From contig JAVKHO010000001.1 in assembly GCA_031459915.1 (NCBI GenBank), positions 25,492 to 89,491 of the forward strand: a DNA stretch of 64,000 nucleotides. The letters are read 5' to 3'. Below are positions 3,746 through 24,709 of the stretch, one piece after another. Below the pieces are notes generated by a model. That model was not told where the DNA came from, did not search any database, and saw only the letters and a program-made list of their open reading frames with translations. Position numbers and translations under genes: made by a program. The DNA comes from Candidatus Tepidifontimicrobium thermophilum. Lineage in GTDB: Bacteria > Sysuimicrobiota > Sysuimicrobiia > Sysuimicrobiales > Sysuimicrobiaceae. Position 1 is the first letter of the stretch, and every line of letters starts with the position of its first letter.

Positions 3746-3761
3746 TTGCACAATCGGTGCC
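3746..3761 (-). promoter_or_regulatory. sigma54 (-24/-12) promoter upstream of flgB: minus-strand GGCACcgattgTGCAA
   Basis: Revcomp of 3746-3761 is GGCACCGATTGTGCAA. GG and GC are spaced exactly as in the TGGCACG-N4-TTGCW consensus. It lies in the 44-nt rpoN-flgB gap. The predicted TSS falls only about 5 nt before the flgB ATG, so the leader would be very short. Confidence 0.55.
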
Positions 3762-3775
3762 GCGGCGCGGCTCCT

Positions 3776-5182
3776 CTACACCGCGGCCTCGGACAACGCC
3801 GCGGCACGGCGCCGCGCCCGGGCGGAGGGGATCCGCGCCATCTCCCGGTACTTGGTGACCGTCCGCCGGGCCACCGCAAACCCCTCCGCCCTCAGCCGGG
3901 CCGCCAGCTCCTCGTCCGTGAGGGGCGCTAGCGGGTCCTCGCCCGCCACCAGCTGCCGGATCCGCTCCCGCACGGGAAGGCTGCTGTCGAAGAACACCTC
4001 GAAGGGCACCACCCGGCCGTCGGGCATCTGCACGAACTTCCCGCTCAGGGCCCGGCTCACCGTGGACTCCCAGACCCCCAGAGCCTCTGCCAGGCGGCTC
4101 AGGGTCAAGGGCTTCAGGTGCGCGGGCCCGTGGTCCAAAAACCCCCGCTGGTAGCGGACCAGGTACTCCGCGCACCGCTGCAGCATCGCGTTCCTACGCC
4201 GCACTGCCTCGATGAACAGCCGGCCCTTGCGGACCTGCGCCCGTAGCCGCTCCCGCTCCTCCGAGGTCAGCTGGCCCTGCAGGAACGCCTGGCGGATCAG
4301 GGGGTGGATCCTCAGCTGCGTCACTGCAGCACCCACCAGTTCCACCCGGTATCCGTCCTCCGTCCGGTGGATGGCCACGTCCGGCACCGCCAGCTCCTCG
4401 GGCCGGACCCGGTCCCCGCCGTGGTCCATGTGGAACGCCTCCGCAGGGTAGGCGACCAGGTGCCGCCGGATGTACCGCACCGCGGCGTGCACGTCTTCCG
4501 CCCGAACCCCCAACCCCGCGGCTACCGTACCGTACTGGCCCCGGCCCAGGGCCTCCAGGTAACCCGCCACCGCGGCCCGCGCCACACGGCGCAGCGGGCA
4601 GTCCGGCAGCCGTTCCAGCTGGAGCAGCAAACATTCCCGCACGTCCCGCGCACCCACCCCAGCGGGCTCGCACGCCTGCAGGGCCTGCAGGGCGCGCTCC
4701 ACCAGGTCCAGCGGCACCCGCAGCTCTGCCGCGACGTACGCCAGGTCCACGTCCAGGTAGCCGCGGCCGTCCACGTAGCCCACCAGGTGCAGGGCCACCC
4801 GCAGGACCGCGGGGTCCCTCACGTTCACCCGCAACTGCGCTTCCAGGGAGTCCAGCAGGTTGGCGGGAGCCGCCGCCCGGTCGAGGGCAGACGGCCGCTC
4901 CTCGGGCCGTTCGTGCCCATGCCACCTGTTCGCCCAGCTCCGCCAGCCGCCGAAGGCGAACTCCCCGCACCGGCTGCAGGTCACCCCTTCCACCGGGTGC
5001 CCGCAGTGAGGGCAGGGCACCGGCACCCGCTCCAGCACGGGGTTTTCCTCCAGCTCCTGCTCTACCCGGGCCAGCAGCTCCGTCACCGTCAGGGGAAGGA
5101 TGGCGTTCACCGCGAGGATGGTCTGCAGGGTCCTCGCCTCGACCGCGGGGACGCAAACGGCACGCACCTCTGCTCCGACCAT
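3776..5182 (-). CDS. rpoN: RNA polymerase sigma-54 factor RpoN, with a Cys4 insertion in region II
   Basis: 468 aa. It has a region I Leu/Gln-rich helix and a C-terminal RpoN box (ARRTVTKYRE). ATG start with a GGAGGGGTGA RBS. It carries an unusual CPHCGHPVEGVTCSRCGEF segment. Confidence 0.9.
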   Translation of the reverse strand: MVGAEVRAVCVPAVEARTLQTILAVNAILPLTVTELLARVEQELEENPVLERVPVPCPHCGHPVEGVTCSRCGEFAFGGWRSWANRWHGHERPEERPSALDRAAAPANLLDSLEAQLRVNVRDPAVLRVALHLVGYVDGRGYLDVDLAYVAAELRVPLDLVERALQALQACEPAGVGARDVRECLLLQLERLPDCPLRRVARAAVAGYLEALGRGQYGTVAAGLGVRAEDVHAAVRYIRRHLVAYPAEAFHMDHGGDRVRPEELAVPDVAIHRTEDGYRVELVGAAVTQLRIHPLIRQAFLQGQLTSEERERLRAQVRKGRLFIEAVRRRNAMLQRCAEYLVRYQRGFLDHGPAHLKPLTLSRLAEALGVWESTVSRALSGKFVQMPDGRVVPFEVFFDSSLPVRERIRQLVAGEDPLAPLTDEELAARLRAEGFAVARRTVTKYREMARIPSARARRRAAALSEAAV

Positions 5183-5257
5183 GTCACCCCTCCGTGCGCC
5201 GGTTTCTGCCTGCGCCGGCCCGCCCCCCTCGGTGCCGGTGCGGCCCTGCCGGGCCTG

Positions 5258-5620
5258 CTAGCGCAGAGCCCTCCGGATCGCCTCCACGAGCCGCGTCTGG
5301 TCGAAGGGCTTGACCACGAAGTCCCGCGCGCCGGCCTGGATGGCCTCCACCACCAGCGCCTGCTGTCCCATGGCGCTGACCATCACGATCCGCGCGGACG
5401 GGTCGCGGCGCAGGATCTCCCGTACCGCCTGCACCCCGTCCATCTGCGGCATGGTGATGTCCATGGTGACCACGTCGGGTTTTGCCTCCTCGTAGCGGGC
5501 GACGGCCTCTTCGCCGTTGCTGGCCTCCGCCACCACCTGGAAGCCGCTGTTGGTGAGGGCCTCCCGGATCATGGCCCGCATGAACAGGGCGTCGTCCACC
5601 ACCAGCACCCTAGCCGACAT
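5258..5620 (-). CDS. cheY: chemotaxis response regulator CheY
   Basis: 120 aa single receiver domain: VLVVDD ... DITMPQMDG ... K. Its start overlaps the cheA stop. Confidence 0.9.
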   Translation of the reverse strand: MSARVLVVDDALFMRAMIREALTNSGFQVVAEASNGEEAVARYEEAKPDVVTMDITMPQMDGVQAVREILRRDPSARIVMVSAMGQQALVVEAIQAGARDFVVKPFDQTRLVEAIRRALR

Positions 5621-23139: not shown

Positions 23140-23928
23140 CTACCTCCGCATGTTGTTGGCCTGGGCCATCATCTCGTCCGCGGTGCTCACCACTTTGCTC
23201 ACCGCCTCGTAGGCCCGCTGGGCCGCGATCATGCGCACCATCTCCTCCACCACCTGCACATTGGAGGACTCCAGGAAACCCTGGGCCAGGGTCCCCATCC
23301 CCTCGGAGCCCGGCTGCCCGGTGACCGCCTCGCCCGACGCGGGTGTGGGGACGAACAGGTTGCGGCCGATGGCCTCCAGGCCTGCGGGGTTAGTGAACCG
23401 GGCCAGCTCGATGCGGCCCAGCTCAGTCGGCGCGGACTCGCCGGGCAGGACCGCGGACACGATCCCGTTGGCGCTCACGGTGATCTTCGAAGCGCCCGGC
23501 GGGATGGTGACGTTGGGCTCCAGGAGGAGTCCGTCGCTGGTCACCAGCCGGCCTTCGGCGTCCAGCTTGAAGGTCCCGTCCCGGGTGTACGCCACGGTCC
23601 CGTCCGGCAGCCGCACCTGGAAGAACCCGTCTCCCTCAATCGCCAGGTCCAGGGGGTTCCCCGTGTATTGGAAGTCCCCCTGGCTGAACAGCCGCTGCAC
23701 GGCCGCCACACGGGTCCCCAGCCCCACCTGGCCCGAGGTGGGTACTACGCCCGCGTTGTCCGAGGGCGCGCCCGCGGCGCGGAACCCCAGGGACATCAGG
23801 TCCTGGAACTCCGCCCGGGCCTTCTTGAACCCGGTGGTGTTCACGTTGGCCAGGTTGTGTGCGATGACGTCGATCTCCGTCTGCTTGGCCACCATCCCGG
23901 TGGCTGCGGTCCAAAGAGCCCGAATCAC
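23140..23928 (-). CDS. flgG: flagellar distal rod protein FlgG
   Basis: 262 aa. The N-terminus MIRALWTAATGMVAKQTEIDVIAHNLANVNTTGFK and the C-terminal motif are canonical. Confidence 0.95.
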   Translation of the reverse strand: MIRALWTAATGMVAKQTEIDVIAHNLANVNTTGFKKARAEFQDLMSLGFRAAGAPSDNAGVVPTSGQVGLGTRVAAVQRLFSQGDFQYTGNPLDLAIEGDGFFQVRLPDGTVAYTRDGTFKLDAEGRLVTSDGLLLEPNVTIPPGASKITVSANGIVSAVLPGESAPTELGRIELARFTNPAGLEAIGRNLFVPTPASGEAVTGQPGSEGMGTLAQGFLESSNVQVVEEMVRMIAAQRAYEAVSKVVSTADEMMAQANNMRR

Positions 23929-23940
23929 CTGTGCACCTCC

Positions 23941-24654
23941 CTACGCGCGCGCCACATCCGCGAGGCGCGCCGCGGTCTCGTCCGCCACCTGCACGCAGCG
24001 CGCCGCGGCCTCGTACGCCCGCAGGCCCGCGACGAGCTGCACCAGCTCCTCCACGGGGTTCACCGAGCCGCGCTGCTGGAAGCCCGGCCGCACCCGTGCC
24101 CGAACTTCCCTCAGCTCGCTTTCCGGCGCCGCGTAAACGCCTGGCCCGACCACGGAAACCGCCTGTACCGGCACGTCCACCACCCGCAGCCGGCCTGCCA
24201 CCTGTCCCTTGATTTCGACCGCGCCGTCCGGCCGGACCCGGAACTCCTGCCCGCCTACCCGGATCGGACCCTCAGCGCCCTGCACCCGTACTCCCCGGAG
24301 GGTGAGGTAGCCCTGGGCGTCCACCTCCAGCCGGCCGGAACTGGCCAGGCGCCCCCCTTCCAGCAACACGAAGCCGCGGCCGTCCACAGCCAGGTCGCGT
24401 GGATCCCCGGTGGGGACCAGAGCTCCCGAGCGCACGTCCACCGCGGCCTGAGCGGGGCCCGGCCCTGAAGCCAGCGAGCCCAGCGGTGCGGCGTTGTCCC
24501 GCCGGAACACCGCCTGGGGCTCGCCCGGCCGCACCGCCACCAGCAGCCTGTGGAAACCGTCGGTTTCGGAGTTGGCCAGGTTGTGCGCCACCAGTTCCGC
24601 CCGCAGCTGCTCCGCAGACATGGCGGAAGCTGCGGCCCGCAAGGCCCGGAGCAT
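23941..24654 (-). CDS. flgF: flagellar proximal rod protein FlgF
   Basis: 237 aa from the ATG at 24652-24654 (MLRALRAAASAM..., RBS GGGAGG). It belongs to the rod protein family. Confidence 0.85.
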   Translation of the reverse strand: MLRALRAAASAMSAEQLRAELVAHNLANSETDGFHRLLVAVRPGEPQAVFRRDNAAPLGSLASGPGPAQAAVDVRSGALVPTGDPRDLAVDGRGFVLLEGGRLASSGRLEVDAQGYLTLRGVRVQGAEGPIRVGGQEFRVRPDGAVEIKGQVAGRLRVVDVPVQAVSVVGPGVYAAPESELREVRARVRPGFQQRGSVNPVEELVQLVAGLRAYEAAARCVQVADETAARLADVARA

Positions 24655-24693
24655 GCTGACCTCCCGCGTTCCGACTTTCCCAGCCGGAGGTAC

Positions 24694-24709
24694 TTGCACA
24701 GACGGTGCC
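24694..24709 (-). promoter_or_regulatory. sigma54 promoter upstream of flgF: minus-strand GGCACCGTCTGTGCAA
   Basis: Revcomp of 24694-24709. It is nearly identical to the flgB element, GGCACCG-N4-GTGCAA. The TSS would fall about 30 nt before the flgF ATG. Confidence 0.6.

Follow-up and report, generated by a model that had tools for sequence, protein, structure and literature searches.

Predicted two-tier sigma54/sigma28 control of a flagellar and chemotaxis supercluster with embedded rpoN and activator genes in a Sysuimicrobiota bacterium

The 64,000-nucleotide stretch of Candidatus Tepidifontimicrobium thermophilum DNA analysed here (contig JAVKHO010000001.1; hereafter the window) holds the right-hand 25 kb of a ~45-kb co-directional flagellar and chemotaxis supercluster. 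Sigma54-type elements, eight in all and six of them in the window, stand before eight co-directional units of this supercluster (Table 1); two sigma28 (FliA)-type elements precede late units, and genes for sigma54 itself (rpoN) and for a sigma54 activator (a bacterial enhancer-binding protein, EBP) are embedded in the locus. On this sequence evidence, we consider it likely that motility is under two-tier sigma54/sigma28 control with both RpoN and the activator encoded by the cluster.

A sequence-only reading of the window had reported five GGCAC-N6-TGCA elements on the minus strand and taken them for sigma54 promoters of flagellar and chemotaxis operons. The pattern has exactly five matches in the window, all on the minus strand and all where that reading placed them. 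Among 100 dinucleotide-preserving shuffles of the window the average is 1.15 matches, and none has as many as five; on the minus strand of positions 1–24709, 0.22 matches are expected (Poisson probability of at least five, ~4e-6). In the flagellar part the plus strand is free of matches, as are both strands of the remaining 39 kb of housekeeping DNA (24.8–64 kb). The rpoN neighbourhoods of other lineages, 468 kb in all, have a background density of 0.64 matches per 100 kb. In each of the five sites, GG and GC are exactly 10 nt apart, with 0–2 mismatches to TGGCAC-N5-TTGCW, and a Shine-Dalgarno sequence and start codon follow downstream. The window sites all lie in short intergenic gaps, co-oriented with the downstream unit and 18–104 nt before its start codon. 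The gaps from the upstream stop codon to the GG of the five sites are 1, 1, 1, 14 and 35 nt: the proximity to stop codons that had been described is real, but the figures given for it (2–15 nt, for three sites) differ.

A sixth site, GGCACAGAGTTTGCG, had been missed. It also fits the extended sigma54 consensus and is the sole extra strong match to a weight matrix derived from those that are conserved (18 bits; next best background 12.1), lying 1 nt past the flaG stop codon and 56 nt before the fliD GTG. Two more strict matches are found left of the window in the same genome (locus L037), which brings the total to eight. These elements look genuine as predicted sigma54 promoters serving the flagellar and chemotaxis operons.

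The sites fall into two sub-classes: those of the rod operons flgB and flgF have the form GGCACCG-N4-GTGCAA, and those of fliD, the methyl-accepting chemotaxis protein (MCP) gene, the EBP gene, HD-GYP and fliL have the form GGCACGG-N4-TTGCA/G. The difference in the -12 region is kept in most relatives (the exceptions, L006 for flgB and L048 for flgF, have TTGCA) and could give the two sub-classes a different strength or timing.

Relatives' loci were gathered via RpoN (L001–L006; 66–91% identity) and via FliW (L040–L048; 75–99% identity). Across these loci, a sigma54-type match stands at the orthologous junction for flgF, fliD, EBP, HD-GYP and flgB, and mostly for MCP. The alignments are anchored on the motif and the pattern columns are 100% conserved by construction, so the real footprint evidence is the recurrence of a match in every relative; motif positions left unfixed by the search pattern (+5, +6 and +10) are 93–97% conserved, versus ~60% majority identity in the flanks. 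Spacing, placement and conservation together support the reading of the elements as sigma54-type promoters. Close relatives also share the embedded rpoN. In an Armatimonadota metagenome-assembled genome (MAG; L008, RpoN 36% identical), rpoN is directly upstream of flgB-fliG, and a GGCAT-N6-TTGCG element, GGCATCCTGCTTGCG, precedes flgB in the same place as the window P(flgB).

In two diderm metagenome loci with 55% GC and a FliW 40% identical, a sigma54-like element immediately precedes the first rod gene (L054:1600–1614 and L050:1044–1058), and the gene order is flgF/G-flgH-flgI-flgJ...flgK-flgL-fliW; because they share both gene order and sigma54-like elements, the arrangement appears to extend beyond the phylum. 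In L006 (Candidatus Sysuimicrobium calidum), ~5.6 kb is inserted between rpoN and flgB (11377–17032); a strict sigma54-type element lies within this insert at 13070, besides the flgB one at 16995.

The late tier is marked by two elements with -35/-10 sequences like TAAA-N15-GCCGATAA upstream of late flagellar genes. Both keep TCAA and GCCGATA across relatives while their spacers vary freely. The sequence-only reading had recognized both and, in Pfam, its late-block order yvyF-flgM-flgN-flgK-flgL-fliW-csrA-hag is borne out, but the flgM element lies after the yvyF-like gene, not before it, which makes the yvyF-like gene part of the predicted sigma54-driven flgF operon. FlgM itself is encoded, its PF04316 score narrowly exceeding the cutoff. 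The flagellin leader is ~147 nt long and contains a GGA-loop hairpin and a GGA-containing Shine-Dalgarno sequence; the leader fold as a whole is not significantly more stable than shuffles (z = -1.28), with only the local GGA hairpin noted.

That rpoN and an activator gene are embedded in the locus, as the sequence-only reading had it, is confirmed by Pfam and NCBIfam. RpoN scores 280.2 bits against TIGR02395 (cutoff 277.35) and has both the core-binding (CBD) and the DNA-binding domain (DBD). Residues 56–73 (4964–5017, minus strand) form a Cys4 motif, CPHCG-x8-CSRCG, right after region I, replacing the acidic region II. Sigma54 region II has been described as acidic and unstructured (PMC5095919), and we found no literature report of a Cys4-type variant. 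The motif (CxxCG-x8-CxxCG) is present in 17/17 RpoN orthologues of the lineage and also in 12 more distant sigma54 proteins (31–40% identity) with a normal region I.

In the activator, the Sigma54_activat AAA+ domain and the lid are complete, with intact Walker A (GESGTGKE) and Walker B (FLDEVGD, with DE) motifs, and the protein aligns to ZraR, NifA, FleQ and NtrC1. Its closest homologues (67–99% identity, 380–414 aa) lack Pfam Response_reg and HTH_8 in 21/21 cases, whereas the next tier (<=57% identity) has both. The protein itself gave no PF00072 match, and the 21 orthologues no PF02954 match. Its C-terminus lies 11 residues past the lid, just before the point where a helix-turn-helix (HTH) would begin. 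In the alignment, a 7-residue deletion falls exactly at the phospho-acceptor loop ("LLDVRIP" in canonical proteins), and the conserved receiver Lys is replaced by Gly. An AlphaFold2 model (predicted local distance difference test score 82.6) has a receiver-like beta-alpha N-domain without helix alpha-2, a long linker helix and the AAA+ module, with residues 393–400 disordered; its best full-length Foldseek matches are NtrC1 REC+AAA (1ny5), FleQ (8p53), NtrX, NtrC4 and LuxO. When the N-terminal 147 residues alone are searched against PDB sequences, receivers are matched at E ~0.5. The model and alignment support a predicted degenerate receiver without the phospho-acceptor Asp. A phosphorylated response regulator of the NtrC/FlgR type was rejected on three counts: the deleted phospho-Asp loop, the lost Lys and the lack of a PF00072 match.

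By its AAA+ and Walker motifs and the absence of an HTH_8/Fis-type domain, the activator fits the type Ic EBPs of Francke et al., the class of activators without a DBD that includes CtcC and FlgR (FleT lacks both flanking domains; PMC3162934). The sigma54-contact loop (residues 223–228; 9969–9986, minus strand) is GAYTHA, not GAFTGA, in all lineage orthologues; canonical neighbours have GAYTGA or GAFTGA/GAFTSA. GAYTHA may reflect co-evolution with the divergent region I of the RpoN. In a related MAG (JANXCW, 68% GC), a canonical REC-AAA-HTH activator, 57% identical, lies directly upstream of rpoN (L075:6001–8789). That rpoN is of the Cys4 type and 44% identical, its neighbours (nfu and gatCAB) are non-flagellar, and the pairing may be ancestral to the flagellar one.

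Under the two-tier model, the eight sigma54-type promoters would serve flgF-flgJ-yvyF, fliD-fliS, the MCP gene, the activator gene, HD-GYP-cheW-cheA-cheY(-rpoN), flgB-fliJ, slt-fliK-flgD-flgE-flbD-motAB and fliL-fliM-fliY onward. The holoenzyme at these sites would use the cluster-encoded RpoN, and open-complex formation would be powered by the cluster-encoded AAA+ activator. Because the activator has no DBD and no phospho-Asp, and because three promoters begin 1 nt past a stop codon, it may act from solution, free of any enhancer. Its activity would then depend chiefly on how much of it is made, or on a partner or ligand, rather than on phosphorylation; the candidates are dosage, an FlhG/FleN-like partner and cyclic di-GMP (c-di-GMP), the last because a GAF-HD-GYP gene is adjacent. 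Positive feedback on both regulators may be inferred, since the activator gene follows a perfect TGGCAC-N5-TTGCA and rpoN follows cheY (at ~10 nt in L006, versus 75 nt in the window); rpoN is probably co-transcribed with HD-GYP-cheW-cheA-cheY. Basal or read-through transcription would seed the loop. Completion of the hook-basal body would release FliA from FlgM, upon which the two sigma28-type promoters would fire, driving flgM-flgN-flgK-flgL-fliW-csrA and flagellin-flaG, and FliW/CsrA would gate flagellin translation.

Several points weigh against this model. A bootstrapping problem would arise if sigma54 were the only route to expression of rpoN and the activator gene; a sigma70 consensus scan of 3000–22999 found no sites, with a consensus poorly suited to a 72% GC lineage. 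DNA-binding EBPs may exist elsewhere in the genome; the related MAG has one beside rpoN. No fliA was found in the window or in a 21-kb extension. Region I of the RpoN is divergent: the Pfam AID match is below the cutoff and the Gln-rich stretch is absent. The contact function of the activator is likewise a prediction, as GAYTHA combines an F3->Y and a G5 change that are each tolerated singly elsewhere, the former in TouR and the latter in FlgR, both validated activators (PMC3162934). In the flgB promoter, no more than 18 nt separate the -12 C from the flgB ATG (3729–3761, minus strand; spacing kept in L001–L005); the leader that this implies, ~6 nt long, is too short to hold a normal Shine-Dalgarno sequence. 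The MCP site is weaker than the others, being strict in L001–L003 and L006 but having GGTAC variants in L041 and L044, and conservation of the slt/fliK site is uninformative because the site lies inside the fliJ coding sequence.

The rival explanation that leaves the promoters genuine assigns their main activation to another, DNA-binding EBP (e.g. of the FlrC/FleR/FlgR type), with the cluster protein as an auxiliary subunit of a hetero-oligomer, as FleT is with FleQ. FleT is indeed a precedent for a truncated flagellar EBP working with a DNA-binding partner (PMC7277832, PMC3162934), the related MAG has its canonical EBP beside rpoN, and the DNA inspected, the window and its leftward extension, stops at fliY. 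We nevertheless think this unlikely: there is no second EBP within the ~45 kb of the cluster, three promoters abut the preceding stop codon and any enhancer would therefore lie inside coding sequence, the footprints show no conspicuous conserved block upstream, and FlgR works alone without a DBD, according to a passage of PMC9696931. A more distant rival, which we hold to be improbable, is that a few unrecognised housekeeping-sigma promoters give rise to long read-through units, with the sigma54 elements inside them carrying little regulatory weight, as minor boosters or as relics. In its favour, every gene points the same way and the gaps between genes are tiny, no intergenic intrinsic terminators were found in the scan of 3000–22999, and rpoN and the activator gene need some sigma54-independent expression. 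Relics, however, would decay, whereas the eight sites are kept by selection across relatives of 66–91% protein identity while their flanks drift, and the sigma70 scan, ill suited as it is to such DNA, is empty.

It is very improbable that the 15-mer is no promoter at all, but the site of some other regulator, an RNA-level junction element (for processing or termination) or an accident of composition. Several copies do lie exactly at gene junctions, but the exact GG-N10-GC spacing, the extended TGGCACG-N4-TTGCA consensus, the strict co-orientation with downstream genes and the presence of rpoN and an EBP gene alongside all point to sigma54. The 15-mer is moreover not palindromic, no terminator-like structure was found, chance is excluded by the match statistics and no Rfam family matches the elements. 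A repeat or mobile element was also rejected as the nature of the 15-mers.

The two-tier model can be extended to a proposal that we regard as possible but rather doubtful: that the cluster is a sigma54 motility switch, complete in itself and free of enhancers, in a phylum of the Bacillati (Terrabacteria). Here a lineage-specific sigma54, with the zinc-ribbon-like Cys4 motif and a degenerate region I, and a co-evolved GAYTHA activator, unable to bind DNA or be phosphorylated, are both encoded in the cluster and would both be transcribed from their own class of promoter, in a possibly bistable positive feedback that turns the entire ~45-kb apparatus on or off. Input would come via c-di-GMP (from the co-transcribed GAF-HD-GYP) or a protein partner, no kinase would take part, and sigma54 would be used for motility only.

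Sigma54 control of flagella is accepted across many phyla, with predictions for Pseudomonadota, Thermodesulfobacteriota, Planctomycetota, Verrucomicrobiota, Deferribacterota and single Bacillota genomes (PMC3162934, PMC12316311, PMC7064773). An rpoN gene within a flagellar locus is known from Rhodobacter sphaeroides (rpoN2 in fla1), and such an association from Xanthomonas rpoN2 (PMC7277832). By analogy, the closest logic is that of FleQ/FlrA and of R. sphaeroides Fla1, in which the early operon is also sigma54-dependent. In Pseudomonas aeruginosa (FleQ) and Vibrio cholerae (FlrA), sigma54 promoters likewise precede the early operon (fliE-fliJ equivalents) and the rod/hook, fliD and chemotaxis genes, with sigma28 before flagellin and flgM, and the receiver-like N-domain is unphosphorylated; the predicted fold of the window activator matches FleQ REC+AAA (8p53). 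FleQ and FlrA, however, have a C-terminal HTH, bind DNA and feed a second, two-component tier (FleSR/FlrBC). The window cluster, by contrast, has no HTH, kinase or second EBP, a fla/che (Bacillati/Spirochaete) gene order and a FliW-CsrA module.

R. sphaeroides Fla1 has an embedded sigma54 gene, sigma54 dependence of nearly all flagellar classes, a FliA/FlgM late tier, a truncated EBP without a DBD and an activator gene transcribed by sigma54 (PMC7277832, PMC3162934); for the window, this last feature is predicted. It differs in having four rpoN paralogues and two EBPs, one of them DNA-binding, and its FleT also lacks an N-domain, whereas in the window cluster one EBP is seen and a degenerate receiver is kept.

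The sequence-only reading had seen Campylobacter/Helicobacter logic in the locus. The RpoN-FlgSR-FliA system of Helicobacter pylori and Campylobacter jejuni has a sigma54 middle tier followed by a sigma28 late tier, and H. pylori FlgR has a G5 substitution of GAFTGA (PMC3162934) and no DBD, for want of which it is described as enhancer-independent (in a passage of PMC9696931 citing Brahmachary 2004; also PMC7064773). As a strict equivalence the comparison does not hold: FlgR is phosphorylated by the kinase FlgS, the early fliF, fliG and export gate genes are sigma70/80-dependent, and the genes lie dispersed, with rpoN outside any flagellar cluster, whereas the window cluster has no FlgS-type kinase, no phospho-Asp in its activator and a sigma54-type promoter before the early flgB-fliE-fliF-fliG-fliH-fliI-fliJ genes.

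Bacillus subtilis uses sigmaA and sigmaD, not sigma54, for its flagellar genes. It nonetheless shares the order flgB-flgC-fliE-fliF-fliG-fliH-fliI-fliJ-...-fliK-flgD-flgE-...-fliL-fliM-fliY, the late block yvyF-flgM-flgN-flgK-flgL-fliW-csrA-hag, sigma28/sigmaD-type promoters before flgM and hag, and CsrA-type sites in the flagellin leader. Unlike the window organism, B. subtilis is a low-GC monoderm of another phylum, without flgH, flgI and flgA.

The source is an uncultured hot-spring bacterium of the phylum Sysuimicrobiota (CSP1-3), not a Firmicute. The "Firmicutes-type locus" of the sequence-only reading is apt for gene order, which is of the fla/che type in the early part (a type common to Bacillati) and yvyF-flgM-flgN-flgK-flgL-fliW-csrA-hag in the late part; it does not fit the organism, because the window has a G+C content of 71.7%, encodes L- and P-ring proteins and matches Sysuimicrobiota-project MAG contigs at 99.9% identity. 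These contigs (JAVKHM, JAVKKK, JAVKKN and JAVKGV at NCBI) also carry the exact FliG protein. Uncultured MAGs supply the nearest RpoN loci; Candidatus Sysuimicrobium calidum and "Bacterium HR32" are among them. As FlgH (L-ring), FlgI (P-ring) and FlgA are encoded in the window (Pfam), the cell is a diderm. Sysuimicrobiota belong to the kingdom Bacillati (NCBI taxonomy); the phylum description reports flagellar and chemotaxis genes in two families and does not mention sigma factors (PMC11604079).

Table 1. Transcription units and predicted promoter elements of the supercluster. Positions are those of the window unless a locus is given; conservation is at orthologous positions.
Feature	Position	Strand	Sequence or genes	Context or evidence	Conserved in
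P(flgF), sigma54-type	24695–24709	minus	GGCACCGTCTGTGCA	-12 C 43 nt before flgF ATG	L041, L043, L044, L047, L048
flgF operon	20123–24654	minus	flgF-flgG-flgA-flgH-flgI-flgJ-yvyF-like	Pfam; gene gaps 0–15 nt
P(flgM), sigma28-type	20090–20116	minus	TCAA-N15-GCCGATAA	between yvyF-like stop (20123) and flgM GTG (20056)	L040–L044, L047, L048
Late operon	16381–20056	minus	flgM-flgN-flgK-flgL-fliW-csrA	Pfam
P(hag), sigma28-type	16363–16390	minus	TCAA-N16-GCCGATAC	overlaps csrA stop codon	L040–L047
Flagellin unit	14685–16208	minus	flagellin (hag, 15036–16208), flaG (14685–15026)	Pfam
P(fliD), sigma54-type, sixth	14669–14683	minus	GGCACAGAGTTTGCG	1 nt after flaG stop	L001–L003, L041, L044, L045
fliD operon	12578–14615	minus	fliD (GTG at 14615)-fliS-orf106	Pfam
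P(MCP), sigma54-type	12528–12542	minus	GGCACGGAGGTTGCA	least conserved site
MCP gene	10770–12500	minus	MCP (HAMP + MCPsignal)	Pfam
P(EBP), sigma54-type	10754–10769 (strict match 10754–10768)	minus	TGGCACGGATCTTGCA	perfect TGGCAC-N5-TTGCW; T abuts MCP stop	L001–L003, L006, L044, L048
Sigma54 activator gene	9450–10652	minus	EBP (400 aa)	PF00158, 3.7e-70
P(HD-GYP/che), sigma54-type	9434–9448	minus	GGCACGGACTTTGCA	1 nt after EBP stop	seven orthologous loci
HD-GYP/che operon	3776–9400	minus	GAF-HD-GYP (8015–9400)-cheW-cheA-cheY-rpoN (3776–5182)	Pfam
P(flgB), sigma54-type	3747–3761	minus	GGCACCGATTGTGCA	14 nt after rpoN stop	L001–L006
flgB early operon	95–3731	minus	flgB-flgC-fliE-fliF-fliG	continues left as fliH-fliI-fliJ
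Sigma54-type site before slt	L037:13258			in 3' end of fliJ; ~145 nt before lytic transglycosylase (slt) gene
Sigma54-type site before fliL	L037:19450			in motB-fliL gap

The gene names given in the sequence-only reading (rpoN, EBP, HD-GYP, che, MCP, flg, fli and the late-block genes) are all upheld by Pfam and NCBIfam. Left of the window, the supercluster continues in L037 as fliH-fliI-fliJ-slt-fliK-like-flgD-orf-flgE-flbD-motA-motB-fliL-fliM-fliY, and right of ~24.8 kb the genes are housekeeping genes unrelated to motility. Three tRNAs, all outside the cluster, are the sole Rfam gathering-threshold/tRNA matches in the window. The GAF-HD-GYP enzyme has its HD, HHE and GYP motifs. The window and L001–L005 share a conserved GC-rich block, GCACCGGCA-CCGAGGGGGGCGGGCC, in the cheY-rpoN gap (5183–5257, minus strand); L006 lacks the block. 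An RNA structure and an internal promoter are candidates for its role.

Three further genes have unusual features. FlgJ (20609–20899) is a 96-aa protein with the rod-binding domain only, and a lytic transglycosylase with an SLT domain has a gene of its own after fliJ (L037:13402–13893), just downstream of a sigma54-type site, in a split arrangement. The yvyF-like protein (20123–20593, minus strand) has a weak TIGR03826 score, below the cutoff, and two CxxC...CxxC pairs flanking a weak winged-helix-like segment; its gene closes the flgF operon, directly before the sigma28-type flgM promoter. The orf106 product (12578–12898, minus strand) has no Pfam or NCBIfam match, is kept in relatives at 39–96% identity and is encoded after fliS, where a FliT-like chaperone would be expected.

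The sigma54-then-sigma28 hierarchy, an embedded rpoN and activators without a DBD are all known already, and nothing is overturned. What is new is the pseudo-receiver activator without an HTH and the regulatory description for the phylum; other variant features are the GAYTHA loop, the three promoters 1 nt past a stop codon, the activator gene (and probably rpoN) behind predicted sigma54 promoters and the RpoN Cys4 motif. This is a first regulatory picture of motility in Sysuimicrobiota (CSP1-3), a widespread uncultured phylum, and it would couple a sigma54-then-sigma28 hierarchy to a fla/che-type gene order and FliW-CsrA in diderm Bacillati, for which the classic models are those of sigmaA and sigmaD. 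With eight near-identical predicted promoters, one sigma factor and one minimal activator, the compact set is a candidate for studying enhancer-independent sigma54 activation or for use as orthogonal expression parts.

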